Position numbers and translations under genes: made by a program
Notes under the pieces: generated by a model
What the model was told of the DNA's origin: nothing
Seen by the model: only the letters and a program-made list of their open reading frames with translations
Databases searched by the model: none
Source: an uncultured Acidobacteriota bacterium
GTDB lineage: Bacteria > Acidobacteriota > Vicinamibacteria > Vicinamibacterales > UBA8438
Direction: 5' to 3'
Length of the DNA: 27,930 nt
Assembly (NCBI GenBank): GCA_937888665.1
Contig: CALBET010000175.1
Location: forward strand, 1-27,930
Part shown: in pieces, positions 4,823 through 22,473 of the stretch
Position numbering within the stretch: the first letter of the stretch is position 1
Layout: every line of letters begins with the position of its first letter

Positions 4823-5578
4823 TCATCCTCCAAAGGCCGCCCGGTTCACAGGCGGCAGCGTCCAGTCCCCGCTGGCGACCAGCTCTTCGGCGAGCCGCCA
4901 ATCCCATGTGTCGTTGATGTCGAACCCCTCACGTTCGTCCGTCCTGAACGGCACGAGCGTGTGACCGGCGATGGTGCGCCCCTCGAGTGCCACCCGACTC
5001 CAGGCGATCTCCAGGCTCGCGTTCTGCACCCAGACCTCGGGCAGCGACGGCATCTGGCTGCTGTGCCACGGCTGCTCAGCCGGACCGAACGGGAGCAACG
5101 GCAGCAACCGGTCGCCCCGGATGACCCACATCTTCCCGGGGTGCTGACGCACCCGCTCCACGGCCCGGAGCGAATCGACGCCGTCCGCGCCCCGAAACAC
5201 GGACCAGGCCCGACGGATGGTGTCGGCGGTCCGGAACGGGCTGGTCGGTCTGAGAATAGCGAAGCAGTCAAAGGTTCTATCGGCGTCCCGCAGCGCGCCA
5301 AGCCCGTGCTCGACCCACTCGATGTCAGGTGACCGCGCCCCGGCTATCGTCGCCGGTCTACGGAACGGCACCTCGGCGCCGTAGTGTCGCGCGACCTCGG
5401 CGGTCGCTTCGTCATTTGTCGACACCACGACCGCCCCGAACACCCCGGAATCGCGCGCGCCCGCGATCGTGTACGCGATGAGCGGATGACCACCCAGCAC
5501 GCGGATGTTCTTGCCGGGCACTCGAATCGACCCACTGCGGGCCGGAATGAACGCGACACAGGACGGCTCGGTGGTCAT
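4823..5578 (-). CDS. neuA: Acylneuraminate/nonulosonate cytidylyltransferase (NeuA/CMAS family)
   Basis: IPARSGSIRVPGKNI, VVVSTND, LRPTSPFR, QNASL, FDIND. Start moved to the ATG at 5578 (MTTEPSC) because the longer ORF-track start lies inside a MITE. Confidence 0.88.
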   Translation of the reverse strand: MTTEPSCVAFIPARSGSIRVPGKNIRVLGGHPLIAYTIAGARDSGVFGAVVVSTNDEATAEVARHYGAEVPFRRPATIAGARSPDIEWVEHGLGALRDADRTFDCFAILRPTSPFRTADTIRRAWSVFRGADGVDSLRAVERVRQHPGKMWVIRGDRLLPLLPFGPAEQPWHSSQMPSLPEVWVQNASLEIAWSRVALEGRTIAGHTLVPFRTDEREGFDINDTWDWRLAEELVASGDWTLPPVNRAAFGG

Positions 5579-5598
5579 CGACGGCACGGCGCAGTAGT

Positions 5599-5756
5599 GC
5601 GTATCACAATGACGGTGACCTATTCGGTCGCCGAGGCGCCGAATCACCGGGCGCGAGGAGGGAGCCTACGGGAAGTCGACGCGTCGTCACAACGCCCAAC
5701 GCCGCGACGGGCGGGACGGCTCGGTGATCGAAAGCGGCGCCGTCATTGTGACACGC
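5599..5756. mobile_element. MITE-like element C (about 158 bp)
   Basis: Terminal inverted repeats GCGTATCACAATGACGG (5599-5615) and CCGTCATTGTGACACGC (5740-5756) match 16/17, with TA 2 nt outside each end; inner imperfect IR; contains the shared core start GGGCGCGAGGAGGGAGC (5649-5665). Confidence 0.7.
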
Positions 5757-8660: not shown

Positions 8661-9722
8661 CTACTGGCCGGCCAACTCGAGTTGGTCAAGCGAGAGGGGG
8701 TCGTCCACGGACAGCGCCACCTTTGTCACCGCCCCGATCACGCGTTGGATCTCGACCGGGGCAAGCCCGTCGCCCGGCGACTTGACCGCTATGTCATCCA
8801 CGGTCAGCGTCTGACCGGCCGGCACGTCGCGGGCCGCGACCAGCTTCTTGCCCATCTTCAGCACCGGCCCGGCCTCACTCGGAAAGACGACCTTCGTCCC
8901 GTCGCCCATGCTCCGTCGGGCTCGCTCGAGGTCGCGGGTCATCTTGCGCATGCCGACCGGTTCAAGCGAGAAGACGTTGTCGGTTCCCTTCATCGCCCGG
9001 TTCAGCGTGAAGTGCTTCTCGATGACCCGCGCGCCCAGCACATAGGACACGACCGGCATCGCAATGCCGTTGTCGTGCCCCGAGTAGCCAATCACGATGT
9101 CTGGGAATCGCTGACGATAGGTGTCGATGACCCGCAGGTTGAGCTCGTCGAACTCCACCGGATAGCCGCAGGTGCACTGCATGATGCAGAGTTGCGTGTT
9201 GATGGCCATCACCGTCTCGTAGGCGCGTTCGACGTCTTCCATGGTCCCGCCGCCGGTGCTCACGATGATCGGTTTCCCGAACGCGGCCACGTGCGCCAAC
9301 AGCGGTAGGTTCCGCAGGTCGCCCGAGGCGATCTTGTAGGCGGGCATGTCCAGCGCCTCGAGAAAGTCGGCACTGAGTACGTCGAACGCGGTGGCAAAGA
9401 AATCCAACCCCAGTTCGGCGGCATACGCCTTCAGTTCGACATACTCCTCGTTGCCGAATTCGAGCGCCTCGCGATGTTCGCCGTAGGTCGCGCCGAAACT
9501 GTTCTCGTTCTCGTACGGCTTGTCGAAGGCGGTCTGGGTAAAGAGGGTCCGATTGTCCCGCTTCTGCAGCTTCACCGCGCTCACCCCGCAGGACTGCGCC
9601 TGGCGGAACATCTCTTTCGCCGTCTCGAGGTTGCCTTGGTGGTTATGCCCGACCTCCGCAATGACGTAGGCAGGGTTGTCGTCGCTGACGACGTGCCCTC
9701 CCAGCTTCAATTCGCGTGACAT
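8661..9722 (-). CDS. neuB: NeuB-family nonulosonate synthase with C-terminal SAF/antifreeze-like domain; 9-phosphate (NANS/Kdn9P-synthase-like) type
   Basis: IAEVGHNHQG, VKLQK, TYGEH, YKIASGD, IVSTGG, IGYSGH, IEKHFTL, SLEP. GGAGGAGG SD supports the ATG at 9722 (MSRELK). Confidence 0.93.
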   Translation of the reverse strand: MSRELKLGGHVVSDDNPAYVIAEVGHNHQGNLETAKEMFRQAQSCGVSAVKLQKRDNRTLFTQTAFDKPYENENSFGATYGEHREALEFGNEEYVELKAYAAELGLDFFATAFDVLSADFLEALDMPAYKIASGDLRNLPLLAHVAAFGKPIIVSTGGGTMEDVERAYETVMAINTQLCIMQCTCGYPVEFDELNLRVIDTYRQRFPDIVIGYSGHDNGIAMPVVSYVLGARVIEKHFTLNRAMKGTDNVFSLEPVGMRKMTRDLERARRSMGDGTKVVFPSEAGPVLKMGKKLVAARDVPAGQTLTVDDIAVKSPGDGLAPVEIQRVIGAVTKVALSVDDPLSLDQLELAGQ

Positions 9723-9765
9723 CGTCCGGTCCTCCTCCACGAGGTAAATGAAGAACTGTGGGCGG

Positions 9766-10716
9766 CTAGCCGCGTATGCGGGACACCAGCGCGTCCCAGC
9801 CCAGTGCGCCGGATGCGGTCGCCCGCGCGCTGTCGGCGATCGACTGCAGTGTGTCCGGCTCCGTCGGTAGTGCCTCGCACCGGTGGATGTCGATCACGTT
9901 GTGCATGTGGTCGAAGACCCCGGGCGAGTGCTCGTCGAAATTGGTGAGCACCACCGACCCGCAGTCCATGGCGGCATTGACGGTGGTGTTGTTGGCCCGC
10001 ACCCCTTTGTCGAAGAAGGCGGCGAAGAACGTCGTGTCGATCAAATAGTTGTACACCGCCGTGTCAGACATGTACCCCAGAAAATAAATATGCTCGCCGT
10101 AGATCTCCCGCAACTCGTCGAAGACCACCGTGAACCGCTCATCAAACGCGGTGCCCTCATGCAACGCCGTGGAGAGATAGACGGAATACGGCCGGCCCGT
10201 CTGCTCCAGCAGCGCGTGCACCGTCCGGTGCAGCTCCGACCGCACCTTGTGCGCCATCCCGAACGCGAACACGGAGAGCCCCTCCAACCGGAAGCGCTGC
10301 GGCTCGAGCAAGGTCGATGGGCACCAGGAGTCCTGTACGTCTGGACGCTGCACCCGCAGCTCGGCGACGAGCTCGGCGTTGCCGCAATACACTGTCGCGG
10401 CCCGAGACAGCAGCGACCGCTCCACATCCGTGTCGGTCCACGCGTGCAGAAACAGACTGAACCCGCCACGCCACGACGCCGTGCCGAGCAATGACACCAG
10501 TGCGGCGCTGTCAGTGTCGGAAAACTCGGACTGCTTGAGCGATAGCACGGGATGCGCCATCAACGCGGCCCGGTCGTCGAACACGCTGAGCATCGGCACC
10601 TCCAGATGACGCGCAAGCAGCAGGTTGAACTTTGCCACTCCGCAGGTCAGGGGATTGAGGTGATATCCGAGCACGCCGTCGGCGCGCCCGGTTCCGACGG
10701 CGGGCTGCTCGCTCAC
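9766..10716 (-). CDS. Short, atypical GT-B-like protein (putative glycosyltransferase)
   Basis: CGVAKFN, AFGMAHK, YFLGYMSD and GVRANNTTVNAAMDCG resemble a GT4-like C-terminal domain. The GTG start at 10716 overlaps the upstream TGA (GTGA). Confidence 0.55.
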   Translation of the reverse strand: MSEQPAVGTGRADGVLGYHLNPLTCGVAKFNLLLARHLEVPMLSVFDDRAALMAHPVLSLKQSEFSDTDSAALVSLLGTASWRGGFSLFLHAWTDTDVERSLLSRAATVYCGNAELVAELRVQRPDVQDSWCPSTLLEPQRFRLEGLSVFAFGMAHKVRSELHRTVHALLEQTGRPYSVYLSTALHEGTAFDERFTVVFDELREIYGEHIYFLGYMSDTAVYNYLIDTTFFAAFFDKGVRANNTTVNAAMDCGSVVLTNFDEHSPGVFDHMHNVIDIHRCEALPTEPDTLQSIADSARATASGALGWDALVSRIRG

Positions 10717-11831
10717 GCTGCCGGCCCCGGTTTCTCGTATACGAGTACCCGGCCCTTGCCCATCCAGTCGATGGTCGACTCCAAGTCGAGCCGCCGCCGT
10801 AACCCCTCGAGCACAAACATCACTCGAAGGAAGTCCTTGTTGAGCAGCGTGATGTGCGAGGGATCGACCTCGAACTGAGTCGTCACGTCGAGCAACCCAG
10901 CGGGGTCCGGGTGAAACCGCGTCGTGACATAGACGTAGCGCGAGGTGACCCGGCACAAGTTGCGCACGGTGTCCCGTACCTGGAGCACAGTCAAGTGCTC
11001 CATCACCTCACGGCAGATGACGAGGTCGTAGGAATTGTCGGCAAACAGACCCGGGTCCGCCGTGGTGCCGGTCTTGATCCGCTCCTTGACCTCGGGCGGC
11101 GCCAGCTCCCTGCAGCTCGGGCTGAAGTCGACACCGTCAGCCACGATGCCTTGTTCCTGCAGCAGGAATAGCAGCATGCCGGGACCGCACCCCACGTCCA
11201 GCACGCGTGTCGGTTGAAATGTCTCCTTGATGACGGCCGGATGGCGTCCCTCGATTCTACGTCGCGCCTCGATCGTGTAGTCGTTGTTTTCCTCGCGCCA
11301 GTCGCTCACGAAATACTCGGCGTCGTAGTGGCCCGACTCCACCGGTCGCTGGTCCGCGACGAGCTGTTCGAACACGCTGACCTCTCCCTCGCCGTCGGGT
11401 GAGGGCGGGCGGTATCTGCGTAACCGTGCCGACGACGAATCGAGCAGGGTGTCCAGCAGGACGATTTCGATGCCCAGTTCCGAACAGACCCGCTCCTGCT
11501 CGGGCGGAAGACACCCCGCCCAATCCTTCCCCTTGATGAAGTGGGTAGGACGCAGTTCGCGCAGCACCGTTTCGGTCTCTGAGTGACTGACGTGGGTGTA
11601 GTCGATATCGGCGAGCGCGTCGATGACCTGGGCGCGCCGAGACGATTCGAGCAGCACCGGATGCTTCGTCGAGACATAGCTGTCTGGGGCAATGTTGCAC
11701 AACAGCTTCGTCCCCAGCGCGCGCGCCGCGCGAAAGTAGGCGATGTGGCCGTGATGGAGCGGGTCGAACGCGCCGTCGACCATGGCCACGCGGCCGTGAT
11801 AGTTCTTCAGTTCATCTGTTGTCAGAATCAT
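10713..11831 (-). CDS. Fusion: HxGH nucleotidyltransferase (RfaE/TagD cytidylyltransferase-like) + class I SAM-dependent methyltransferase
   Basis: N-terminal DGAFDPLHHGH, IKGKDW, DSSSARL; C-terminal VLDVGCGPG, GVDFS, DLVICREVMEHL. Start moved to the ATG at 11831 (MILTTDEL). Confidence 0.85.
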   Translation of the reverse strand: MILTTDELKNYHGRVAMVDGAFDPLHHGHIAYFRAARALGTKLLCNIAPDSYVSTKHPVLLESSRRAQVIDALADIDYTHVSHSETETVLRELRPTHFIKGKDWAGCLPPEQERVCSELGIEIVLLDTLLDSSSARLRRYRPPSPDGEGEVSVFEQLVADQRPVESGHYDAEYFVSDWREENNDYTIEARRRIEGRHPAVIKETFQPTRVLDVGCGPGMLLFLLQEQGIVADGVDFSPSCRELAPPEVKERIKTGTTADPGLFADNSYDLVICREVMEHLTVLQVRDTVRNLCRVTSRYVYVTTRFHPDPAGLLDVTTQFEVDPSHITLLNKDFLRVMFVLEGLRRRLDLESTIDWMGKGRVLVYEKPGPAA

Positions 11832-11871
11832 ACGCAGTGCTGGTTCAGTGTCAGAGTGAGTGATGCCAGTG

Positions 11872-14082
11872 TCACGACGTCGACGATGCCGGGATGACGG
11901 GGACGATCGGTGTCTCGATGTCCCGACCCAGGGTATCGAACAGCATCTCGACCATCGCAAGCTCCCGCACATCGAGTGTGACGAGTGGGGCTCCGAGGCG
12001 GCGGGACAGTCGCCGAGACACGTCCAGATGGGTCGAAACGAGCTCGGCTTCATCCGAAAAGAGTCCGATGGACGGTACCCCATAGAAGGGCCCCAGATAC
12101 GACAGCCCTCCGTAGGTGCCGACGAAGGCCCGCGCATGGGCGATGACAGCGCTCTGCACCTCCAGATTCGTCGTCGGCGTCATCAGATGGTCGAGCTTGT
12201 GCACACCCATCCCGGTCCCGGGGTCGAAGTCTTCGTGGTCGTCCAGGCTGAGACCAGGGTTCAGCAAGACGACCGGCGTCCGCCGCGCGAGCGCGCGGAT
12301 GAGCCGAGCAATAAGGGTGCGATTCTCCGGCGTATCGGGGAAGGAGGGCCGGAAGTAGAACCGGACCGCCACATATTCCTTGGGTAGCGTCTTGAGCATG
12401 GACGCAGCATCCATCGCCGGCATCCGCCTGTAGACCGCATGCTTCTGTAGCAGGCTGATCGCGCCCTTCTCGTACCAGTAATATCGCAGCAGGCGATACA
12501 TGACGGCGGGGTGCAAAACCGTGACGTCGTTCAACCCCTGCCGTGCCTTCACCAACTCGACGATCCGATCGTCGAAGTCACCGACGGCCATCTGCTTCTG
12601 ATTGCCGCCGTCCTGCCAGCGAGACTCGTTGCGCCGCCTGAATTGTTTCACCGACATCAGATCGAAGATATCGACGTAGTGACCCGCCAGGTCCCGATAC
12701 CATGCACGAGCGCCGCCCCGGGAGACGACGACCAGCCGGTCCGAACTCAGCTCGAACTCCTTGACAGCCCAGGTCAGAAACGGAATCCAGTAGAGCACCT
12801 CGAAACCCACTTCCGACAACCAGGGACCGACGATGATCGGCTTGCCACTCTGCGCCACCCGGCGCAGCTCCCGTCGCATCAAGCCCACCTCCCGCCCAGC
12901 CGGCACCTCTTCGATCTCCTGTCGGACGAGCCACGGTATGATGCGACTCTGCATGAGCGGCAGCGACCGCACCGCTCGCAAGAAAAACCGCCCAGGAGGC
13001 GCAATCGCCTCGCTGGCTGCCTTACCGGCCTTGCGTCTAGTGCGCTGCACGAGTTTCTGTCTCCTCTCGGCATTGCCGAACCACTTGTGCCATCGCGCCC
13101 TGAGGCGGCCGATGGTTGACCGCCGCCTGAACCCGCGATAGTACCCCCGCGCGCGGAGGTAGATCGGCTTCAGAAACGTGGCGTGCTCGAAAAGGTCCAA
13201 TCGTAGCTGCCTCAATTCCTGCCGAAGGTGCAGCCGTCCGGCCAAACGGAGGTAGCGCCCCCCGAGCCGAAGCCCGGCCCAACGGCTGATGCCGGGCGAC
13301 CGCTCGCCACGCACCCCGAGCGTCCACGTGAGCACGGTCGCATGGCTGATCCACCATGGAACGAAGGAGTAAAAGGGCCGGCCGTTCGGAAAGAAGGCGA
13401 GTCGCTGGCGGTGCAAACTGAAGATCGGCCCATACCAACGCCGGAACCAGAGAATGTCCGGTACTTGTCGGAACTGTCCCTCCAGTGCCAACTCCATCAA
13501 CAGCAGGCGGTCCGGCACCAGGACGTGACGAAACACCCCGGCACGCCTGATGGCGCCGACGCGCCCGAGCCCGTAGATCATATTCCCGGCCGACATGTGG
13601 CGCATCGTCCGCCGGAACCGGGCGCGTCGATCGTCCACCCCGGCCGTGGCGAACTCCCACGGGCGCTTGTCGTTCATCACCCCGTCCGGTCCGATTCGCC
13701 GGTTTCGCGGGTACGCCAGTACCGCCTCCGGATGCGCATCCAGCTCCGCCACCAGAGTGGCCAGCCAGTGAGGGTGCCAGATATCGTGGTCGCTGGCCCA
13801 GGCGAAGTACTCGGCATCCGGTGCGTCCTCGAGCGCGACTTCGAAGGCGAGACGCCAGTTGTCGATCATCCCCAACCGGCTCGGGTTCCTGGTGTAGACG
13901 ACCCGAGGGTCTCGTGCCGCGTAGCGCAGGACGATCTCTCCCGTCGCGTCCGTCGATTGGTCGTCCACACATACCAATCGAAAATCTCGATACGACTGGA
14001 TGAGCAACGACTCGAGCGTCTCCAGAAGATCGTCGGCGTGGTTGTACATCGGAGCGCCGATGACGACCCGCGGTCCGCTCAT
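11872..14082 (-). CDS. GT2 glycosyltransferase fused to an unnamed C-terminal domain ('GPWLSEVGFE' domain)
   Basis: N-terminal GAPMYN, VCVDDQSTD, RLGMIDNW, FAWASDHD (GT-A); C-terminal domain paralogous to the C-terminus of 16738-19461. The ATG at 14082 overlaps the upstream TGA (TGATG). Confidence 0.85.
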   Translation of the reverse strand: MSGPRVVIGAPMYNHADDLLETLESLLIQSYRDFRLVCVDDQSTDATGEIVLRYAARDPRVVYTRNPSRLGMIDNWRLAFEVALEDAPDAEYFAWASDHDIWHPHWLATLVAELDAHPEAVLAYPRNRRIGPDGVMNDKRPWEFATAGVDDRRARFRRTMRHMSAGNMIYGLGRVGAIRRAGVFRHVLVPDRLLLMELALEGQFRQVPDILWFRRWYGPIFSLHRQRLAFFPNGRPFYSFVPWWISHATVLTWTLGVRGERSPGISRWAGLRLGGRYLRLAGRLHLRQELRQLRLDLFEHATFLKPIYLRARGYYRGFRRRSTIGRLRARWHKWFGNAERRQKLVQRTRRKAGKAASEAIAPPGRFFLRAVRSLPLMQSRIIPWLVRQEIEEVPAGREVGLMRRELRRVAQSGKPIIVGPWLSEVGFEVLYWIPFLTWAVKEFELSSDRLVVVSRGGARAWYRDLAGHYVDIFDLMSVKQFRRRNESRWQDGGNQKQMAVGDFDDRIVELVKARQGLNDVTVLHPAVMYRLLRYYWYEKGAISLLQKHAVYRRMPAMDAASMLKTLPKEYVAVRFYFRPSFPDTPENRTLIARLIRALARRTPVVLLNPGLSLDDHEDFDPGTGMGVHKLDHLMTPTTNLEVQSAVIAHARAFVGTYGGLSYLGPFYGVPSIGLFSDEAELVSTHLDVSRRLSRRLGAPLVTLDVRELAMVEMLFDTLGRDIETPIVPVIPASSTS

Positions 14083-15170
14083 CAAGCGAGTTCCGACTCG
14101 AACACACGACGCCATCCCACTACATGCTTGTACCCACTGTCCTTTGGGGTGGGGTCGGCGTCCAGCATCTTGGTGTAGCTAACCGGCAGCACGTCGATCC
14201 CGTGCGGCCAGTAGTACTGCCCGATAATCGAGCGAACGTTGCTCAGTTCCTGATTGTGATGCGACCGGTCCCGGTTGAGGCTATAGAGGTAGGGGCACTC
14301 CAGTTCAAATGCGTGACGGACGTATCCCTCGACCTGCTGGGTCGTCATCTCCTGAAAAGACACCATGTTAATCATCAGATCGACCTGCTCTGGACGAGCC
14401 GCGGCGTGAAACGTGTCAGGGAGGAAGATGAAGTCGAGATCCCGCCAGTCGTTGAACGTCTCCTGCGGGGCGACTTCTCCGTAAAACCGCACTTTGGCGT
14501 CGGGAAAGGCCGCCATCAGATAGGTGGCCGAGAACAGGAACAACTCGGGGAAGTCCGTGATGACGTAGGTGACATTGGGGCACAGCTTCTTGAACTGGTA
14601 GGGGAACCCGCCCCACCCGGCGCCGATCTCCCACACGAGTTTCCGCTCAGTCGCTTGGCGCATCTCGCTGAGCACTGCCCCCATCCGCATGGCGATCAGC
14701 ACTTCGTAGAACTTCAAGGTGTCGATATTGACGAGGTCGCCCTCGATGTCGAACCCAAAACCTCCGAGGAGCGTCGCCTCGGGTACCCAGAGATCCGCGT
14801 CGTCTAGCGCACGCAGGGCCGCAAGCTTCTCGGTGAACCGTTCGCGCTGACGATTCAAACTCTGCCGGTAGTGATTGGCATGAAGCCCGGTGAGATTGTG
14901 GGTATGGTGGCGCAGCTTCTCGATGATCAGTGGCGACGCGTCGAGCATATACTCGAATTTGGCCAGTTCACCTGACCAGTAGTCGCTGGGCGCGTGACCG
15001 ATCAGTCGGCGGTTCCGCCCCAGCGCCATGAGACCAAGCACCTGTCGTCGGACCCGCAGGTAGGCCTGGTAGGCGGCCGCCGTGCGGCGGACGCGGAGCT
15101 GCGCGTCCCACGCGTCGGCCGCAGCGTGGGGAGTAGCCGACAACTCTTCGGTTGGGGTCTGCTCGCTCAT
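14082..15170 (-). CDS. Putative sugar O-methyltransferase (NanM-like family)
   Basis: VWEIGAGWGG, ITDFPELFLFSATYL and DLMINMVSFQEM match the NanM/Leptospira-type sugar O-methyltransferase pattern. The ATG at 15170 forms an ATGA overlap. Confidence 0.75.
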   Translation of the reverse strand: MSEQTPTEELSATPHAAADAWDAQLRVRRTAAAYQAYLRVRRQVLGLMALGRNRRLIGHAPSDYWSGELAKFEYMLDASPLIIEKLRHHTHNLTGLHANHYRQSLNRQRERFTEKLAALRALDDADLWVPEATLLGGFGFDIEGDLVNIDTLKFYEVLIAMRMGAVLSEMRQATERKLVWEIGAGWGGFPYQFKKLCPNVTYVITDFPELFLFSATYLMAAFPDAKVRFYGEVAPQETFNDWRDLDFIFLPDTFHAAARPEQVDLMINMVSFQEMTTQQVEGYVRHAFELECPYLYSLNRDRSHHNQELSNVRSIIGQYYWPHGIDVLPVSYTKMLDADPTPKDSGYKHVVGWRRVFESELA

Positions 15171-16741
15171 AGAACTGCACCACGTGAGCGGAAGCGCTTG
15201 CGGGCCTTCCCTAGGCGCTCGCGCCACTTCCAGAACTGCCAAGCCGCCATTGATAGTGATGCCACAGTGTTCGCAAACCGCTGCGCGCGGCGCGCGTCGA
15301 AAACCACCAGGAAAACCGCCAGGGTCCACAAGCCGGCTCGCAGCGGCCACAGGCGTACGGGAAGCACGTGGTCCGCCTCCGGGACGGTGCCGGCCAGTTG
15401 CTCAAGCGCCGCCACAAGTCGCGGCGTTGCCGCGACATCCAGCCCGTGAGGCCGCACGAACGTCTTCGTGAACGCGCGGGCCGACGGGGCCTGCCCTCCG
15501 TCTATGGTCGCCGAGAGCTGACGCGTGTGTTCCTTGAGGCTGGTCGCGCGCTGGAGGTGGCCTCCGTTCTCCGGCAGCAGATATCTGAAGTGCAGGGTGC
15601 CGGTCTGTGTCTCGTCGAATGATGAGTCGACAATGGTGAATACTGGCCGGTCTTGAATACCGGACTCGATCATGGCCGACGTGTTGATGCCGACGATGCC
15701 GGCACCGTGGTGCAACGTGTCGTAGTAATCGGCCCGATCGTCGTTGTCGACCGGATTCGCGCCACTCCTCGGATAGACCGCCACGTTGGCATAGCTCGAC
15801 AGATCCACCGATTCCCAATGCGCGCAATTGTATGGATGCGGGCGGATCAAGATGCCCAGCTCTTTTAACGAACCGGGCCCGCTACGCACCGCCTCGATCC
15901 AGCGTTTGACGAACCGCACCTCCGGTGAGGGTGCGGAAATCGAGGCCGTAGAACCGGTGAACACGACGAACGGACGGTCTGGGGACAGACCAACCCGTCG
16001 GCAGAAATCGTCGCGCGACCGACGTGGGGTCCGATCGAACCATCGGTCGAAGCACTGGGCCCCGGTCACGACGATCCGCTCGGCAACCGCACCGTGAAAA
16101 TCGAGTGCCTCCCGACGCTGATCGTGGTTCCACACAGCCACCAGGTCGGGCTGGATACGCATCAGCCCCTTCGTGGTCAGGTGATCCCAGGAGGCCACGC
16201 ACAAGGCGCTGCGCACCCCAACCCGCCGAGCGGCTTTGATGAGATCAACTTGGGGGCACTGATCGGTCACGAGCGGCGACACGACAAGCACGTCTGGGGC
16301 AATCCGTCGCAGATACGTTTCCAACGCCCTGCTGCTGGGCACCGCCCGCTCGCACGCCAACAGGACCCGCACGATGCGGGCGGTGCGCTCCGCGGTGGTC
16401 GTCGTCCACCGGCCCAGAAACCGGGTCAGTGGCGGCAGGACGGTGCGCATTCGATCCCGCAGATAGGATGAATGCTCGAACCGCGGGTGCAAATACCGCG
16501 CGTAGTCGATGGTACCCCGTATGCCGCGTGCCACGGGGTTCCAGATGTCTGGGCGCCGCGGCACCGCATCGAGCACCTCGACGTCACCGTCGATGCTCTC
16601 CAGCGCCGCCAGTCCTTCCGGTTGCTTGTGCGGCTGGTCGAAGGCCACCAACACCTGGTGCCCGCGTTGACTCAGCGCTTCGAGGGCCGAATCGAAGTAC
16701 CGCAGATAGCCCGGGTACTGCAGGACGAAGAGCACTCTCAC
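15167..16741 (-). CDS. GT-B-like protein ('WDNL/HP' type; TagF/KpsS-like superfamily), paralog 2
   Basis: SWDHLTTKG, VWNHDQ, TGAQCFDRWF, ILIRPHPYN, GINTSAMIESGI. The GTG start overlaps the upstream stop. Confidence 0.65.
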   Translation of the reverse strand: MRVLFVLQYPGYLRYFDSALEALSQRGHQVLVAFDQPHKQPEGLAALESIDGDVEVLDAVPRRPDIWNPVARGIRGTIDYARYLHPRFEHSSYLRDRMRTVLPPLTRFLGRWTTTTAERTARIVRVLLACERAVPSSRALETYLRRIAPDVLVVSPLVTDQCPQVDLIKAARRVGVRSALCVASWDHLTTKGLMRIQPDLVAVWNHDQRREALDFHGAVAERIVVTGAQCFDRWFDRTPRRSRDDFCRRVGLSPDRPFVVFTGSTASISAPSPEVRFVKRWIEAVRSGPGSLKELGILIRPHPYNCAHWESVDLSSYANVAVYPRSGANPVDNDDRADYYDTLHHGAGIVGINTSAMIESGIQDRPVFTIVDSSFDETQTGTLHFRYLLPENGGHLQRATSLKEHTRQLSATIDGGQAPSARAFTKTFVRPHGLDVAATPRLVAALEQLAGTVPEADHVLPVRLWPLRAGLWTLAVFLVVFDARRAQRFANTVASLSMAAWQFWKWRERLGKARKRFRSRGAVL

Positions 16742-19461
16742 CGTACGGACTCGCTCGGCGCCGGATCGCCGGCCCAGGGCTCGGTCACGCGTCCGGGGCT
16801 TCCCGGAGTGTCGGGCGCTGTCGATGACGCATCCAACGCATGTCCCTCCACGACCAGGCTCAGCAGGTCGAGCGAGTGCACGTCGAGCGCGACGAAGGAC
16901 CCGCGCTTCAGCGTGGCGGCCGCGCGATACATCAGGTCAAGATGATGAGGCGCCACATGCTCCGGGTTCGAATAGAAGGCCAGCGACCGGACGCCGTAGA
17001 ACGGAGCGACATACGACAGGCCGCCGTAATTACCGACGTAGGCGCGGGCGCCACTGATGACTTTCGTCTGCACCTCCAGGTTGTTCCTGGGCTCCAACAA
17101 CTGGTCGATGCTGTGCACGCGTCGCGTCACATCCGGCTTCAGGTCCCAGTGATCATCCACAAGGAATCCGGGGTTGAGCAGCACGACGTCGGTGATTTCA
17201 GTGACCCGCGTCAGGAGACGGCGAACAAAGTCCATGTTCTCCACGGTCTCTGGGAACGGATTGTTGTAGTAGAAGCGGACGGCCACGTAGTCGTCGGGGA
17301 GCTTGGACGTCACGTCCGAGGCGTCGATCGCCGGCAACCGCTCGAAAGAGGAAAACGACTCGATGAGGTTGATGGACGCGCGGCTCTTCCAATAGGGGTA
17401 GAACAGTCGATACATGTACATCGGGTGGAACAGCTCCGCGTCCCGACGTTCAATGGCGAGTTTGACGAGCTTGACCACGTCGCGGTCGAACTCCGTCAGC
17501 GCCCGTTGTTTTACCTCGCCTTCCGCGAGCCGCTGGTCGTGGCGCTGCTTGATCTGCGACGGCGTGAAGAAGTCGAACACGTCGATGTACCGCGCGCCGA
17601 TACCCTCGTACCAGGCGGCGACGCCGCCGCGCGAGACGATGACCAGTCGCTCCGGGTCGAAGTGCCGATAGGTCTTCACCCAACGCAGGAACGGCACCCA
17701 GTACAAAATCTCGAACCCGACCTCACTCAGCCATGGACCGACGATCAGCGGGCGATCGCTCTTGTGCAACTTGTCGATGATGCGTGGAATCGCGACCATT
17801 TCCTCGGTCGGTTCATCCGTACTCATCCGCGGCACAACCCGCGGCACCACGTACTTCTTGACGAAGGTCTTGGCCGGCCGCCAGCGGAGGCACACATCGA
17901 GCCCGGAGAAGATGGGCTTCAGCATCATCCCGCTCAGCGTCAACGGTCGCAGCTGGCGCTGCCGCTTGCGCGACGTTCGAGTAAATTCCCGGACCACCTT
18001 CAGGCCGATCGCCACCGGATACAGCAACCATCTCAGCGGGTACAGCCACCCCGGAGTGCCGGCGGCTGACGGGCGCGGGAGACGTCCGAGCTCCTCGATA
18101 GCGTCCGCGATGAGCGGGGTCGCGGCCACGTCGAGGCCCTTCGGTCGCACGAACGCCTCGATGAACCCCCTGAGCTTCGCTTCCTCGTTGGACCGCTGGT
18201 CGAACACGTGCCCGAGTTGCGCGACATGTTCAGCGAAGTCGTGCGCGTTGTGCACGAGCCCACCGCCGGCCTCGAGCAAGTGCTTGAAGTGCAGGGTGCC
18301 TTCCTGTGTCCCGATATGCTCGTCGGTCTGGATCGTGAAGACCGGCCGCCCGACGATACCCGCCTCGATCTGCGCGCTGGTGTTCACCCCGACGGCCGCC
18401 ACGCTGTGAAACAACGAATCGTAGAAATCGTTCTTGGAGCCGGCGTCCACGGGGTTGTCGCCACCAGCCGGCCAGACCGAGACGTGATCGAACTCGGCGA
18501 AGTCGTGTTTGTGCCACGGCTGCAGGTTCTGCGGGTGCGGCCGCACCAGGATGGACGCGTTACGCACCCCCTCAGCATCTTTGCCTGGGGCCTCGCCCAG
18601 CGCGCGAACCCAGCGCTCCACGAACGCCGCCTCGTTCGGCGCGATGAAGCCAGACGAACAGAGATACACCACGAACGGGCGATCGGCGGGCAACCCGACC
18701 TTCGCGCAGAATTCCTCACGAGTGGTGCTCGGGGTCCGATCGAACCACTGGTCGTAGACCGGCGCCCCCGTCGCGAGGACGTGCTCTGGCGGCAGGCCGT
18801 GCATGGCGACCGCCTCCTGTCTCTGCAGCTCGTTCCACACATACACACGGTCGGGCTTGATCCGGATGAGGCCCTTGTTGGTGAGGTTGTCCCAGCTGTG
18901 CACGCACAGCCCGGTCCGGATCCCAAGGGCGCGGGCGCTCTTGAGATAGTCGGCCTGGTCTGACCCGAGGTCAACGAGCGGCGTGACCAGCACGACATCG
19001 GGGTTCTGTGACGCTATGAGCGTATTGACCCACGTGTCCGCCGGAATCGCCTGTTCGATCCAGAGCAGCAACCTGGACAGCCCACGGCGTCCGAGGCCGC
19101 TATTGATCAGTGGCAATTTACTGAAACCAACCAGCGACCGAGGCAACCGCAACTGCGCCCGCTCGCGAAGCTTGTCGGCGTCCCGGTACTCTGGACCGAG
19201 ATACCGCAGGAAATCGGCCCAGAAACGGACCCCTCGAGCGAGCCCGAGCCAGAAGCGATACGGGGTTTTCTTCGTGGCCAGTTCCGAATGCGTAATCGTC
19301 GCGTAGTCGTCCGTGAGGTCCCACAGAAGACGCCCGTCGCCCAGCTTGTCCTGCATGACAAACGTGAGATGCACGTGGTGCCCCCGGTCGGCGAGTTCCC
19401 GCACCGTGGACGCGAAGTTCCGGAGCGCGCCCGGGTGCCGCATCGAAAACAGAATCTTCAT
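16738..19461 (-). CDS. Two-module putative glycosyltransferase/polymerase: WDNL/HP GT-B-like module + 'GPWLSEVGFE' domain
   Basis: 907 aa. N-terminal half paralogous to 15167-16741 (SWDNLTNKG, ILVRPHPQN, GVNTSAQIEAGI); C-terminal third paralogous to the C-terminus of 11872-14082. Confidence 0.75.
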   Translation of the reverse strand: MKILFSMRHPGALRNFASTVRELADRGHHVHLTFVMQDKLGDGRLLWDLTDDYATITHSELATKKTPYRFWLGLARGVRFWADFLRYLGPEYRDADKLRERAQLRLPRSLVGFSKLPLINSGLGRRGLSRLLLWIEQAIPADTWVNTLIASQNPDVVLVTPLVDLGSDQADYLKSARALGIRTGLCVHSWDNLTNKGLIRIKPDRVYVWNELQRQEAVAMHGLPPEHVLATGAPVYDQWFDRTPSTTREEFCAKVGLPADRPFVVYLCSSGFIAPNEAAFVERWVRALGEAPGKDAEGVRNASILVRPHPQNLQPWHKHDFAEFDHVSVWPAGGDNPVDAGSKNDFYDSLFHSVAAVGVNTSAQIEAGIVGRPVFTIQTDEHIGTQEGTLHFKHLLEAGGGLVHNAHDFAEHVAQLGHVFDQRSNEEAKLRGFIEAFVRPKGLDVAATPLIADAIEELGRLPRPSAAGTPGWLYPLRWLLYPVAIGLKVVREFTRTSRKRQRQLRPLTLSGMMLKPIFSGLDVCLRWRPAKTFVKKYVVPRVVPRMSTDEPTEEMVAIPRIIDKLHKSDRPLIVGPWLSEVGFEILYWVPFLRWVKTYRHFDPERLVIVSRGGVAAWYEGIGARYIDVFDFFTPSQIKQRHDQRLAEGEVKQRALTEFDRDVVKLVKLAIERRDAELFHPMYMYRLFYPYWKSRASINLIESFSSFERLPAIDASDVTSKLPDDYVAVRFYYNNPFPETVENMDFVRRLLTRVTEITDVVLLNPGFLVDDHWDLKPDVTRRVHSIDQLLEPRNNLEVQTKVISGARAYVGNYGGLSYVAPFYGVRSLAFYSNPEHVAPHHLDLMYRAAATLKRGSFVALDVHSLDLLSLVVEGHALDASSTAPDTPGSPGRVTEPWAGDPAPSESVR

Positions 19462-19604
19462 GACAGCATCCGGTCGACCCAGGCACCCAGCAGGTGCGCC
19501 GGATCGACATCGATTGTTCTCGTCAATTCCGCGGGCACGCCCAGCATGACGCCGGCTACAGCGTGCGAGACCGCCAGAGAGAGGTACTGCAGGTCACCCT
19601 TCTG
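19458..19604 (-). pseudogene. 3' remnant of a deleted gene (possibly wzt)
   Basis: Open frame QKGDLQYLSLAVSHAVAGVMLGVPAELTRTIDVDPAHLLGAWVDRMLS*. About 78% GC at third positions (38/49 codons, counted by hand); its TGA overlaps the next gene's ATG (ATGA); the 5' side is bounded by a MITE end. Confidence 0.55.
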
Positions 19605-19633
19605 GAATGCAGCGGGACTTTCACCACGGGCTG
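19605..19633. mobile_element. Solo terminal inverted repeat of the element B family
   Basis: GAATGCAGCGGGACTTTCACCACGGGCTG matches 8627-8655 at 27/29; no partner end found nearby. Confidence 0.75.
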
Positions 19634-19667
19634 TCAAGCCACGTCGATCCGGTGTCGACCGCGGACA

Positions 19668-20474
19668 CTACGGCAGGCTCTCCACCGCCAGCGGCATGGC
19701 GCGGCGCAGGAACCGCAGCGCCAACCAGAACAGCGCGCCGAACACCAGCGCGCAGATCAGAAACACCAGCTCGTCACCTGTCGTGCCTCGCACGAGCCAC
19801 TGACGTGGGATGTTGATCAGATAGGTCAGCGGGTTCCAACGGTTGACGACGGCCAGGACCCCCGCCTTCGGTGACGCGTAGAGAATCGGCGCGGTCCAGA
19901 GCAAGAATGGCGACAACAGCGGCAGCCCGAAACGGAAGTCGAGATACACGAACGTCAGGGGCACGAAGAAGGCACCGATGGCCAGCCCGCCGAGGACGAT
20001 AACCGGAAAGGCCAGCAACGCCAGCCACAGTGTGGCCGGTGGCGCGGTCCTGGTCAGGGCCGAGGCCAGAACAAAGATCGCGGCGTAGAACGAGGCGTTG
20101 AACAGCACCAGTCCGGCCCCGGCCGCCACCACCGCTTCAGGTCGAAGCGGCGCCTCCTTGAAGGTACGCCGAAGCCGGCGGGCGAGCCACTGCGGGGAAA
20201 TGACCGAGTCCCAAAACATCTGCCACAACAGGAACCCGGCCAGCGCGAAGAGTGCGTATTCGGTCGCGTCCATCTCGCCCCCGAGACCAAAGGCATTGCC
20301 AACCAGGATCAACGGCAGCATGCTCGCTACGGGGCGAGCGACCGCCCAGATGTACCCCAGATAGGCTTGCCGGTAGCGAAACCGGAAGTCGCGGAGCACG
20401 AGCAGCCGGGCCTGCTGGACGAGCTGGGCGAAGCTTCGGCCTCGGCCCGAGCGGCGGTACGTGCCCCCCCTCAC
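19668..20474 (-). CDS. wzm: ABC-2 polysaccharide exporter permease (Wzm/KpsM-like)
   Basis: RDFRFRYRQAYLGYIWAVARP, several hydrophobic TM segments, YLDFRFGLP, APILY, RWNPLTYLI. The GTG start at 20474 overlaps the upstream TGA. Confidence 0.88.
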   Translation of the reverse strand: MRGGTYRRSGRGRSFAQLVQQARLLVLRDFRFRYRQAYLGYIWAVARPVASMLPLILVGNAFGLGGEMDATEYALFALAGFLLWQMFWDSVISPQWLARRLRRTFKEAPLRPEAVVAAGAGLVLFNASFYAAIFVLASALTRTAPPATLWLALLAFPVIVLGGLAIGAFFVPLTFVYLDFRFGLPLLSPFLLWTAPILYASPKAGVLAVVNRWNPLTYLINIPRQWLVRGTTGDELVFLICALVFGALFWLALRFLRRAMPLAVESLP

Positions 20475-21973
20475 GACGGGGCTCCGGCGGGCGGCGTCGC
20501 CGCGAGCGTGTCGAGCACCCACTGCCCGAGCCGTGCGCCGGCCTGGCCATCGGTAAACGCGCAGCACCGCCGCGCGAGCGCACGACGTCCCACACCATCC
20601 CTCGCCGGGTCGGCCAGATAGCGCGCCACAGCACGCACGAGATCGATGGCGCTCACGGCTACATGCGCCGCACCGGTCTCCACCACCGGCTGATAGTGTT
20701 CAAACTGGTAATACCGGGTGATGGAGAGTGGCAGCGGCAAGTCGGGCGTCTCGTCGAAACCGATATTTACAACCGGCGTGTCAAAGAGCGCCGCCTCTAC
20801 GGTCGTCGTGGAGGCAAAGTTCACGATCACGTCGCTGTGGGCTAGCGTCGCGGCCAGCCGACGTCGATCCTCGGTCCCTGGGGTGAACGAATCGAGCTCC
20901 GGCGACCCGTGGCTCCACTCAAGTTGCTGGAACGGCTTCTCGACGAAGACGTGTCGACCGTCGTGGAACCTCGAGTACAGGTCCACGTGGTCGCGCGGAT
21001 GCACGCGCACCAGGAGCTGGGCCTCGTTGCCAAATGCCCCCTCGTCGATCGCTCGCACGAGAATCTCGACCACCCGATCGGTGGTCGGATACACCAGCGC
21101 GGGGGCGGTGGCCAGTGTGACCAGTGGGCGAGCAGGGTCGGCGCCGACCGATGCACACAGCTCGGCTCTGGTCGGAATGGGCTCGCCACCGAAATAGGCG
21201 TCGAAGGGCAGCGCTCCGGTCACCCGGACGTGGTCAGCCCGGAAGCCGTGGTAGCGAACCGCTTCATCACGCATCGTCTCGTTCCAGACGGCCAGTTGGT
21301 CGACCGGCAGGACAGTGTGATATTTCGACGACAGATTGTCCCACCCGAGGTCGACACCCATCTGCGGCACGCCGAAGCGCTTGGCCGCATAAATCAGCGG
21401 TACCTCGATCGGGAGAAAGCCGGCGGTTGCGGTCACGAGCAGATCAGGCCGATGGGTCTGGAACAGCGTCCGATAGCCGGACACGTCGGTGATCCGCTGT
21501 GCCACCCGAAACCAGCCGCGTCGGGACACCGGCAGCCGACACACCGCCGCCTTGAGCGCGATGAGGGCGCCACGCCCCCGCCATTTCTCCATCAACCGCG
21601 CGCGGTCACGCTGGATCCGGACCGCCCGCAAGCGGGACTCAAGGAGAAACCGTTCGCTCAGAATCGAATCGACCACCCGTGCGCCGAGGCTGGGTGGCGG
21701 CGCGAACATCGGGACACAACGCACATCCTGTCGCTCAAGCTCCGACACCAGCTGGGGATCCGAAGCGAACGGAGACAACACCACGATCCGAGGTCGCGGT
21801 TGCGCGTCGAGCAACGCTCGCAGAAACGACCCGCGCGTGAGGTCCGCCACGTGGTGGCCGGCCGGCACGGAGAGGAACATCGTCCGCCACGGCGCCGCGT
21901 CCAAACTGACCGGCGGCGACGGGTGACCTAGGGCGGGAGCGGCGCGGACGACCAAGGTGGGCGCCGCGCTCAC
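20471..21973 (-). CDS. GT-B-like protein ('WDNL/HP' type), paralog 3 (more divergent)
   Basis: GWDNLSSK, VWNETM, TGALPFDAYF, LLVRVHP, NFASTTTVEAALFDTPVVN. The GTG at 21973 overlaps the upstream TGA. Confidence 0.65.
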   Translation of the reverse strand: MSAAPTLVVRAAPALGHPSPPVSLDAAPWRTMFLSVPAGHHVADLTRGSFLRALLDAQPRPRIVVLSPFASDPQLVSELERQDVRCVPMFAPPPSLGARVVDSILSERFLLESRLRAVRIQRDRARLMEKWRGRGALIALKAAVCRLPVSRRGWFRVAQRITDVSGYRTLFQTHRPDLLVTATAGFLPIEVPLIYAAKRFGVPQMGVDLGWDNLSSKYHTVLPVDQLAVWNETMRDEAVRYHGFRADHVRVTGALPFDAYFGGEPIPTRAELCASVGADPARPLVTLATAPALVYPTTDRVVEILVRAIDEGAFGNEAQLLVRVHPRDHVDLYSRFHDGRHVFVEKPFQQLEWSHGSPELDSFTPGTEDRRRLAATLAHSDVIVNFASTTTVEAALFDTPVVNIGFDETPDLPLPLSITRYYQFEHYQPVVETGAAHVAVSAIDLVRAVARYLADPARDGVGRRALARRCCAFTDGQAGARLGQWVLDTLAATPPAGAPS

Positions 21974-22473
21974 GCTGGCGAGCCCTCGTGCGCCTCCACC
22001 AGCAAGTCGCACACCTCACGCACCGCGCCCAGCCCGCCTGACCGCTCAGTTACGTAGCGCGCCACGACCAGGGCGGCCGGATACGCGTCAGCCACGCAGA
22101 TGGAGACCCCCACATTGCGCAGACAGTCCACGTCGTTGATGTCGTTGCCGACGTAGGCGACCTGGTCAGTTGCGAGGTCGCGGTCCGCGAGAATCTGGCG
22201 GAGCGCAGCCCACTTGGTGTCGCCCAGCCCCTGGACACACTCGATGCCCAGCTTCGCGGCCCTGGCCGAAACCACCGGATTCGTCTCCGTGGACAGCACG
22301 AGCGAGCCGAGGCCTAGACGACGCAACGCCTGGAGGCCCAGTCCGTCAGCACGCGAGCAGAACACCGCCTCTTTGCCGTCTTGATCGACCAGCACGCGGT
22401 TATCGGTGAAGACCCCGTCGAAGTCGAACACCACGAACGTGACGGGCCTGAGATGTTCAGCGGTGAGTCGCAT
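21970..22473 (-). CDS. KdsC/YrbI-family HAD phosphatase, probably nonulosonate-9-phosphate (Kdn9P-type) phosphatase
   Basis: FDFDGVFTD, ADGLG, STETNPVVSARAAKLGI (Glu and Lys 11 residues apart), YVGNDINDV, GGLGAVREVCD. Confidence 0.88.
   Translation of the reverse strand: MRLTAEHLRPVTFVVFDFDGVFTDNRVLVDQDGKEAVFCSRADGLGLQALRRLGLGSLVLSTETNPVVSARAAKLGIECVQGLGDTKWAALRQILADRDLATDQVAYVGNDINDVDCLRNVGVSICVADAYPAALVVARYVTERSGGLGAVREVCDLLVEAHEGSPA

Follow-up and report, generated by a model that had tools for sequence, protein, structure and literature searches.

Three related proteins, P1, P2, and P3, were encoded in the window, which is the whole 27.9-kb stretch (~65% G+C) analysed here from the metagenome-assembled genome (MAG) of an uncultured Acidobacteriota bacterium (1,243 contigs, 83% complete). 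Each protein contained a module marked by a WDNL and an HP motif. There was about an even chance that these WDNL/HP modules are transferases using ulosonic acids activated with cytidine monophosphate (CMP). P1–P3 were the best candidates for ulosonate transfer, P3 being a stronger case than P1 and P2. The most economical reading was that the family supplies the ulosonate-transfer step, most clearly in the P3 subfamily. The modules, with their predicted glycosyltransferase B (GT-B) fold, were located as follows.

15167–16741, minus strand: P1, 524 residues, an unfused WDNL/HP GT-B module whose C-terminal tail is hydrophobic and basic (translation; homology to P2)
17992–19461, minus strand: N-terminal WDNL/HP module of P2, residues 1–490 of a 907-residue protein (translation; 41% identity to P1)
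20471–21973, minus strand: P3, 500 residues from a GTG codon at 21973, a diverged WDNL/HP module (the longest open reading frame (ORF) reaches 22012)

The motifs quoted in the preliminary description were all read in the translations. They were SWDHLTTKG, IRPHP, and NTSAMIES in P1, SWDNLTNKG, VRPHP, and NTSAQIEA in P2, and GWDNLSSK, VRVHP, and STTTVEA in P3, and the string W-N..EA..HG..TG..FD was present in all three proteins. In BLAST comparisons, P1 was 41% identical to the N-terminal 490 residues of P2 (E 2e-113), and P3 was 30–31% identical to P1 and P2 over 230–270 residues (E 5e-22 and 5e-24). P1, P2, and P3 are true paralogs, far beyond chance. Across 67 sequences of both subfamilies in a joint alignment, residues Trp185, Asp186, Trp204, Asn205, His216, Gly227, Asp232, Arg300, His302, and Glu359 (P1 numbering) were invariant, and Lys191 and Pro303 were nearly invariant. 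The equivalent residues of P2 are Trp190, Asp191, Trp209, Asn210, His221, Gly232, Asp237, Arg307, His309, and Glu366. These invariant positions coincide with the motifs named beforehand, so that both the motifs and the three-way paralogy were borne out, and a chance origin of the motifs was ruled out by the BLAST E-values and the invariant columns. The earlier placement of three modules also stood, except for the extent of P2 (full frame 16738–19461, minus strand), of which only residues 1–490 form the module and the remainder holds a GT9-like domain. A hydrophobic stretch followed by basic residues was located right after the GT-B module in the C-terminus of P1 (15167–15400) and in the linker of P2 (~17990–18060), and P3 was without it. 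This stretch is probably a membrane anchor.

The AlphaFold model of P3, built with 30 homologs, was predicted with a mean local confidence (pLDDT) of 89.6 and a template-modelling score (pTM) of 0.88, and the modelled protein had the GT-B fold with two Rossmann-like lobes. The P1 and P2 modules presumably share this fold, given their homology to P3. A Foldseek search with the P3 model gave at least 500 GT-B matches. The VIA Z scores were 23.3 for NeuC, 20–22 for UDP-GlcNAc 2-epimerases, 20.4 for TarL with cytidine diphosphate (CDP)-ribitol, 19.0 for the Kdo transferase WaaA, 18.9 for TagF, 15.8 for the capsule enzyme Bcs3 with CMP, and 14.7 for the GT38 polysialyltransferase 5wc6, and the matches covered 320–340 aligned residues. 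This ranking of a predicted model points to no single function. Of the structural relatives proposed in the preliminary description, TagF was recovered and the GT38 enzyme scored lower, and GT107 and GT99 were not among the top 50 structural matches listed for the P3 model. The same held for GT118 and GT140, and members of these four families may rank further down.

P1, P2, and P3 had no Pfam match at E ≤ 0.01. Window P3 reached 12.8 bits (E 0.056) against PF04464 (Glyphos_transf), under the gathering score of 22.1 bits, and P1 and P2 did not match. All 30 members of the P3 subfamily matched PF04464 at E ≤ 0.1, with a best E-value of 6.4e-12 and 23.5 bits for the copy of locus L104. The P3 subfamily was thus at the edge of the PF04464 clan, with the window copy below the cut-off and other members above. 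It is, by these matches, the closest of the modules to TagF-type enzymes. In agreement, the ESM Atlas neighbours were PF04464 clusters for P3 and 'hypothetical' clusters for P1. PF04464 itself was not matched in the source genome at E ≤ 0.01. NF046086 was the sole NCBIfam family matching all three proteins, at 27.3, 23.4, and 43.0 bits for P1, P2, and P3, respectively, none of which reached the cut-off of 200 bits. The match had E-values of 1.9e-6 for P1 and 3.2e-11 for P3 and spanned profile positions ~101–179 of 365.

The capsule family PF05159 (Capsule_synth, the GT107 enzymes KpsC/KpsS) was matched neither by P1–P3 at E ≤ 0.01 nor by 66 relatives at E ≤ 0.1, and the Pfam sialyltransferase models GT38, GT42, GT52, and GT80 were likewise unmatched by P1–P3 and by the 66 relatives (E ≤ 0.1). 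Membership in GT107, GT99, or GT38 was rejected, since it had no sequence support in any test used. Sequence searches of the PDB, by phmmer with P1, P2, and P3 and by hmmsearch with three family profiles, returned only TALE-repeat noise (E ~0.02). In an exhaustive P1 search, the family comprised 4,931 clusters (50% identity) with a threshold of E ≤ 1e-3 and still 1,455 with E ≤ 1e-30. The WDNL/HP family appears as a large, distant offshoot of the TagF/TagB clan that is without a Pfam model and is annotated 'hypothetical'.

For comparison of active sites, four bona fide PF04464 proteins of the same phylum (171–210 bits) served as TagF-type references. They carry QLWHGVGFK, GYPRND, PTFR, K-x-H-P, DYSS...D, and a C-terminal DG..S.R, and five of these six motifs were collinear with both WDNL subfamilies in a joint MAFFT alignment. 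The correspondences, from TagF-type enzymes to the WDNL family, were as follows.

GYPRND to TGA..FD: Arg lost, non-basic column
PTFR to TAP or STA: Arg lost, non-basic column
K-x-H-P to R-x-H-P: kept, invariant in both subfamilies
SS..D to ST..E: kept
DG..S.R to DG..A.R: in P3 only

In the N-terminal lobe, W-D was found in 67/67 family sequences at a position taken as equivalent to WHG from spacing, strand order, and a non-significant hhalign match. WDN...K and WHG...K share the W+6 spacing, and trimmed hhalign superposed the two motifs, although non-significantly (E 0.2). When the P3 alignment was compared with the TagF-type alignment by hhalign, only the C-terminal 109 columns were aligned (E 0.013, probability 3%), and a second module-family alignment gave no match to the TagF-type alignment. 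In TagF, the likely base is H444, within WHG, and H584 makes contact with the CDP-glycerol pyrophosphate (PMC11666461). In the WDNL family, the base His appears to be replaced by the Asp of WDN, and the cytidine-nucleotide half-site seems to be kept while the residues for the second phosphate are gone. These three features together would fit a CMP-sugar donor. The HP motif and the S/T-rich E motif had been read beforehand as a CMP site on the example of KpsC/KpsS, bacterial sialyltransferases, and TagF. The site was supported, as the invariant R-x-H-P and S/T..E motifs aligned with the nucleotide motifs of TagF-type enzymes, whereas the kinship to KpsC/KpsS (GT107) was not.

The distribution of the family was closely tied to NeuB, the ulosonate synthase. 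A scan of species genomes gave more than 579 related stretches, mostly in Vicinamibacterales and other Acidobacteriota. Other carriers were Planctomycetota, Alphaproteobacteria (including the cultured Tistlia consotensis USBA 355), Actinomycetota (Solirubrobacterales, Gaiellaceae, and Acidimicrobiia), Chloroflexota, and Nitrospinota, and the family spans at least six phyla. NeuB was present in all 44 genomes behind 45 loci (E 4.5e-65 or better, ~220 bits or more). Assuming that contig numbers follow accession order, at least 29 of these loci had NeuB no farther than 30 kb from the module. Contig identity was confirmed for two of the 45 loci (G018:C8 and G044:C84), and the number of G044 broke the accession order. 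In a single sample of 251 genomes, drawn evenly from the phylum, 19 genomes belonging to 17 genera carried the family (E ≤ 1e-20), and 70 carried NeuB (E ≤ 1e-40). NeuB was found in 19/19 carriers versus 51/232 non-carriers (22%), a count that includes the unpublished genome G093 and becomes 50/231 without it. The Fisher p value was 4e-12, or 5e-9 by genus, and both overstate the association because related genomes are not independent. The preliminary description had named a distribution independent of neuA/neuB/kdsB as a refuting outcome, and the strong dependence on NeuB did not refute it.

Five P3-type loci, each from another acidobacterial family, all contained KpsM-like, NeuB, and NeuA genes, and the KpsM-like gene adjoined NeuB. 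The two fully annotated loci, L102 and L104, had the order wzm-neuB-neuC-neuA-methyltransferase-...-AsnB-like amidotransferase-wzt-P3-type (one or two copies)-GT2. A 427–441-residue ATP-binding cassette (ABC) ATPase gene was located just upstream of the P3-type genes, with one methyltransferase gene intervening in L102. Besides the P3-type genes, the only transferases were GT2 and, in L102, one GT4-like gene, and the P3-type genes are therefore candidate ulosonate transferases by elimination. Genes for CDP-polyols, an IspD/TarI-type gene, and the GT9-like domain were not found in L102 and L104. In L104, neuC-neuB-neuA was the only sugar-nucleotide pathway within the 20-kb stretch, with housekeeping uridine diphosphate (UDP) sugars still conceivable.

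Among 72,556 plasmids, one match was found, a 464-residue 'hypothetical protein' (FVA81_RS03400) on the Rhizobium sp. WL3 plasmid NZ_CP042825.1, and the plasmid search with P1 gave no match. The Rhizobium homolog directly follows neuB, a KpsF-like gene, a small glycosyltransferase gene, neuC, and a NeuA-family gene, and it retains WD...K, HG, G....D, and R-x-H-P. A bona fide NeuC (~250 bits to PF02350) stood beside the P3-type genes in L102, L104, and this plasmid.

Ulosonate transferases are known from families GT30, 38, 42, 52, and 80, from the Maf proteins, and from the Tannerella family. GT99, GT107, GT118, and GT140 are also ulosonate transferase families, and new ones are still being defined (PMC12887879). 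The WDNL/HP family apparently belongs to none of these, and its proteins seem most like HP-motif, cytidine-nucleotide-dependent GT-B enzymes. The best named sequence match of P1, P2, and P3 was the Tannerella family, NF046086. Its members in Tannerella forsythia (Tanf_01245 / TFUB4_00887 / BFO_1060) were proven by knockout and complementation to transfer a derivative of pseudaminic or legionaminic acid (Pse/Leg) (PMC5420450). Like the modules, the Tannerella enzymes are TagB/GT-B-like, carry an HP motif, and are encoded beside a CMP-nonulosonate pathway and a methyltransferase. However, they have ~445 residues, cap a protein O-glycan once, and have been described with DXD and D/E-D/E-G motifs, whereas the window modules have the W-D-N motif, relatives in multi-copy arrays, and an ABC-transporter-dependent context.

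The TagF/TarL/TagB enzymes (PF04464) resembled the modules in the GT-B fold (Z 18.9–20.4), in the collinear [KR]-x-H-P, SS/ST..D/E, and G....D motifs, to which P3 adds DG..A..R, in membrane association, and in the fusion of polymerases to glycosyltransferase domains. They differed in that the modules have Asp for the WHG His, are without the Arg of GYPR-D and PT-R, and have NeuB/NeuA instead of TagD/TarI as partners. The GT38 polysialyltransferase and the GT52 and GT80 enzymes combine an acidic N-lobe residue with the HP His of the C-lobe, a pairing that the W-D-N Asp may reproduce in the modules, and their CMP-ulosonate donor is the chemistry proposed here; however, they carry D/E-D/E-G in place of W-D-N, and the structural similarity was below that of TagF/TarL. 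The users of CMP-activated 3-deoxy-D-manno-octulosonate (Kdo) or CMP-Pse, GT107 (KpsC/KpsS), GT99 (WbbB), GT118 (KpsS1, Pse), and GT140 (KrkA, Kdo), act in ABC-transporter-dependent capsule or O-antigen assembly, as proposed for the modules, and the tandem modules of KpsC resemble the module–module fusions of the WDNL family. These retaining enzymes differ in their highly modified GT-B fold and in the use of an Asp nucleophile for a double displacement.

In the proposed mechanism, P1, P2, and P3 would be membrane-associated GT-B transferases of a family that branched from cytidine-nucleotide-dependent TagF/TagB-type enzymes. Each module would take a CMP-ulosonic acid, supplied by the NeuB, phosphatase, and NeuA of the cluster, and add the sugar onto a growing glycan, which would then be exported through a Wzm-type ABC route. 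The C-terminal Rossmann lobe may grip CMP through R-x-H-P and S/T..E, and the His would stabilise the departing phosphate. The Asp of W-D-N in the N-terminal lobe, seemingly at the position of the TagF base His, may activate the acceptor hydroxyl, so that the Asp and HP pair would work as in bacterial GT-B sialyltransferases. P2, with its fused GT9-like domain, could make a two-sugar repeat, and P1 and P3 could form additional ulosonate linkages or else serve in capping or priming. The paralogy, the GT-B fold of P3, the conserved motifs, the distant tie to the TagF clan, and the association with NeuB stand as shown, and what is inferred is the donor, the roles in catalysis, and the division of labour. 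The preliminary description had taken the three copies as a sign of priming versus elongation or of different linkages. Priming versus elongation was too simple, as one to ~10 copies per locus were found, with fusions of the module to itself, to the GT9-like domain, and to a methyltransferase.

A broader form of this proposal, more doubtful than the transferase assignment itself, is that the WDNL/HP proteins could be a new CAZy-level family of CMP-nonulosonate transferases and polymerases. The family would have arisen from TagF-type phosphotransferases by the His-to-Asp swap and the loss of the Arg residues for the second phosphate. Its arrays of up to ten diverged modules, interspersed with GT9-like and methyltransferase domains, would give soil Acidobacteriota and members of other phyla highly variable surface polymers rich in ulosonate. 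In very few bacteria are the transferases of sialic-acid-like sugars known, and the families GT118 (2024) and GT140 (2026) are recent (PMC12887879). If true, the assignment would supply the transferase step that is missing from many nonulosonate clusters, offer a case of a phosphotransferase scaffold converted into a glycosyltransferase, and provide a toolbox of linkage-specific enzymes for ulosonate-containing glycans. If not, the complete NeuB dependence would still place the family at the core of a glycan assembly line that is unstudied.

Several observations weigh against ulosonate transfer by the modules. The match to the Tannerella family amounted to just 23–43 bits over ~70 residues. 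In Bacillus subtilis, SpsB, a TagB/SpsB-family protein (COG1887) that is likened to the modules, by description and context, through its TagB-like GT-B fold, HP motifs, and position beside a CMP-legionaminic acid pathway, could be deleted and Leg remained on the spore surface (PMC7439481). Since SpsB is dispensable for Leg transfer, an argument from gene context can fail. MAFFT set WHG one strand away from WDN, and the profile link of the N-terminal lobe was non-significant. The PF04464 signal was nearly nil in P1-type proteins (2/36 at E ≤ 0.1), and the closest P1 orthologs were 0.64 and 1.5 Mb from NeuB in two complete chromosomes. Co-occurrence with NeuB is a sign of pathway membership and says nothing on which donor is used. 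Nine to ten paralogs per locus exceed the apparent need of one or two ulosonates. The GT9-like domain was co-amplified with P1/P2-type modules and was once fused to a NeuA-like domain, so that it could be the CMP-sugar user instead; together with the large arrays, it makes other donors conceivable. A TagD/RfaE-like nucleotidyltransferase is also encoded in the window. The view of the modules as the missing ulosonate transferases gained from the predicted GT-B fold, the apparent half-site, the NeuB dependence, and the fact that Pfam scans of the window gave zero matches to the sialyltransferase, Kdo-transferase, and KpsC/S families, and it lost from the weak Tannerella match and the negative SpsB precedent.

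Alternatively, only the P3 subfamily would transfer CMP-ulosonate, and the P1/P2 subfamily, which makes up the large arrays and is fused to GT9-like and methyltransferase domains, would use other donors for the rest of the same glycan. Such a split was considered unlikely, though more credible than the other alternatives. It agrees with the P3-type genes of the minimal wzm-neuB-neuC-neuA-wzt clusters and beside neuA in Rhizobium, with the PF04464 and NF046086 signals, which were clear in P3-type and scarce in P1-type proteins, with the P1 type of the 9–10-copy arrays, and with the P1 orthologs remote from NeuB. However, every invariant active-site residue is common to both subfamilies, and NeuB was present in all P1-type genomes examined (eight strong carriers of the phylum sample and the 44 locus genomes), mostly within 30 kb. 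It is less probable still that the modules are ordinary glycosyltransferases using sugars of UDP, guanosine diphosphate (GDP), or adenosine diphosphate (ADP), for example adding the acceptor sugar, with another protein, perhaps the GT9-like domain, moving the ulosonate. GT-B is a generic fold, and UDP-sugar enzymes (2-epimerases, MshA, MGD1, and MurG) scored as well as TagF/TarL; a NeuA-like and GT9-like fusion exists in a relative (G018:C8:67946-69853), and the window has a GDP-mannose dehydratase and a UDP-glucose/GDP-mannose dehydrogenase. Against this stand the P3-type NeuB/NeuC/NeuA clusters in which the GT9-like domain was not found, the single sugar-nucleotide route of L104 (housekeeping UDP-sugars aside), the alignment of the invariant R-x-H-P and ST..E with cytidine-nucleotide enzymes, and the complete NeuB dependence at genome level (19/19 and 44/44).

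A similarly low probability was given to TagF-like phosphotransferases, which would move polyol-phosphate or another phospho-alcohol from a CDP donor, made by the TagD-like enzyme, into a teichoic-acid-like phosphodiester polymer that also holds ulosonate. The PF04464 kinship and the similarity to TarL and TagF are those expected of such enzymes, a CTP_transf_like nucleotidyltransferase is encoded in the window as well as in 18 of 79 related loci, and capsule polymerases are known in which a TagF-like module is joined to a glycosyltransferase domain (PMC11666461). However, Asp appears in place of the WHG His throughout the 67 sequences, and two Arg positions invariant in the PF04464 references are lost. 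In addition, the TagD-like gene goes with the NeuB block and not with the module, the TagD-like fusion protein had no blastp match in the five P3-type loci, and an IspD/TarI-type gene was not found in the two fully annotated loci. Finally, because the window is without neuC, the modules might be not transferases at all but NeuC/WecB-like 2-epimerases or hydrolases of nucleotide sugars that make the hexose precursor for NeuB. NeuC and the UDP-GlcNAc 2-epimerases were the best structural matches, and a weak PF02350 match was present in 8/30 P3-type and 4/36 P1-type members. This was judged very improbable, as a bona fide NeuC already accompanies the P3-type genes in L102, L104, and the Rhizobium plasmid, and a soluble precursor enzyme would not be expected to form arrays reaching ten copies, to be fused to GT9-like and methyltransferase domains, or to carry hydrophobic tails. 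CMP-ulosonate transfer was preferred for the modules.

The window was a single long glycan cluster with nearly all genes on the minus strand (Pfam and NCBIfam scans). The order began with two GT4 genes, a transketolase-like gene, the CTP_transf_3 (NeuA/PseF-like) cytidylyltransferase, an aldehyde dehydrogenase, a short-chain dehydrogenase/reductase (SDR), and NeuB. These were followed by a membrane protein without a Pfam match, a TagD/RfaE-type nucleotidyltransferase–methyltransferase fusion, a GT2 with an extra C-terminal domain, the NanM-like sugar O-methyltransferase, P1, P2, the KpsM-like permease, and P3. After P3 came a KdsC/Kdn-9-P-phosphatase-like hydrolase, a 2-hydroxyacid dehydrogenase, a GDP-mannose 4,6-dehydratase, and a UDP-glucose/GDP-mannose dehydrogenase. 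The features next to the modules were as follows.

4823–5647, minus strand: CTP_transf_3 (NeuA/PseF/KdsB-like) cytidylyltransferase (PF02348 4.7e-18; TIGR03584 PseF 8.7e-34, below cut-off)
8661–9740, minus strand: NeuB-family ulosonate synthase, the presumed maker of the donor sugar (PF03102 6.5e-76; TIGR03569 6.2e-85)
10713–12137, minus strand: CTP_transf_like (TagD/RfaE-type) nucleotidyltransferase fused to a methyltransferase (PF01467 1.2e-10 and methyltransferase domains)
11872–14115, minus strand: fusion of a GT2 domain with another copy of the GT9-like P2C domain (PF00535 3.6e-25)
14082–15350, minus strand: NanM-like sugar O-methyltransferase, directly downstream of P1 (TIGR04371 4e-23)
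16852–17841, minus strand: C-terminal domain of P2 ('P2C', residues 541–870), a second GT-B domain, GT9-like and not a WDNL module (AlphaFold pLDDT 90.4)
19668–20567, minus strand: KpsM/Wzm-like ABC-2 permease between P2 and P3, context of glycan export (weak NCBIfam KpsM match, 5.1e-5)
21970–22473, minus strand: KdsC/Kdn-9-P phosphatase-like hydrolase of the haloacid dehalogenase type, directly upstream of P3 (Pfam Hydrolase_3; NCBIfam KdsC 1.7e-33 and KDN-9-P phosphatase 6.9e-23, both below cut-offs)

The cytidylyltransferase at 4823–5647 would make the CMP-activated donor. The TagD/RfaE-type fusion protein (10713–12137) could provide a donor activated with CDP or ADP. It may instead supply the GT9-like domains, whose typical donors are ADP-sugars. 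An ABC-transporter ATPase (wzt/kpsT) was not found among the 20 window ORFs scanned. Start and stop codons overlapped by 4 nt between P2 (stop) and P1 (start) at 16738–16741 and between the KdsC-like gene (stop) and P3 (start) at 21970–21973, which suggests translational coupling within an operon.

The P2C model matched the GT9 heptosyltransferases 3tov and 1psw with a VIA Z of 13.5 and 3tov with a Foldseek E-value of 8e-7. No usable Pfam match was obtained, as GT9 was matched in just 2/24 P2C-type members (E 0.01). The 'IVGPWLSEVGFE' domain is this GT9-like P2C domain, and it was located both behind the WDNL module of P2 (16852–17841, minus strand) and behind GT2 (11881–12858, minus strand); the GT2-borne copy was 44% identical to P2C (row 2 of the P2C alignment). 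Among 150 family representatives, 88 had a single module, 25 a module with the GT9-like domain, 24 a double module, 7 a module with a methyltransferase, and a few had longer chains. The methyltransferase of such fusions was the NanM-like sugar O-methyltransferase (e.g., P0160, P0177, P0178, and P0212), just as P1 and the NanM-like gene are neighbours in the window. In a 635-residue protein (L086:17947-19854, which is G018:C8:67946-69853, minus strand), an N-terminal NeuA-like (CTP_transf_3) part was joined to the GT9-like domain. This fusion hints that the GT9-like domain, instead of or besides the WDNL module, may use a CMP-sugar. Fusions of NeuA type to the module were not seen in Pfam scans of eight long multi-module relatives, which gave just GT4-like and GT2 signals. 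A requirement of the GT9-like domain for ulosonate transfer was rejected, as its profile matched nothing in 5/5 P3-type NeuB/NeuA loci.

Within 10 kb of P1-type genes, 79 loci contained the GT9-like domain in 59 cases, the NanM-like methyltransferase in 44, NeuA-like genes in 21, and NeuB in 18. A TagD-like nucleotidyltransferase was found within the same distance in 18 of these loci, where it travels with the NeuB block. The number of modules per locus ranged from 1 to ~10, and tandem arrays of 9–10 diverged modules within ~21 kb were present in L035 and L039. In G018:C8 (50–110 kb), the same transketolase-NeuA-aldehyde dehydrogenase-SDR-NeuB block as in the window was followed by five to eight GT9-like proteins and a second NeuB, and then by about nine modules and a KpsM-like permease. 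Some array modules (L035, L039; G018:C8:74836-97613) were split in a Nanopore-derived MAG, possibly by frameshift errors or as pseudogenes. The source genome of the window had extra P1-type copies on two short contigs (G000:C548:219-1705 and G000:C657:3-548), the first of which spans two adjoining frames (residues 1–209 and 202–493) and may be a split gene or result from a frameshift or from misassembly.

On the Rhizobium sp. WL3 plasmid described above (L110:3469-9318), four 'hypothetical proteins' of 449–513 residues were encoded directly upstream of neuB, none of them a clear WDNL-family member. Three of them (513, 475, and 449 residues; mutual identity 23–24%) formed another unnamed paralog family, and the fourth (509 residues) had two [KR]-x-H-P motifs. 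Among viral contigs, the P3 profile had no match, and the P1 profile found five distant relatives on the IMG/VR contigs L105–L109 with 25–30% identity, four of them at 41–46% G+C. NeuB and NeuA were absent within 8 kb of the module relative on these viral-labelled contigs. In L107, a GDP-mannose dehydratase-like gene adjoined the module relative.

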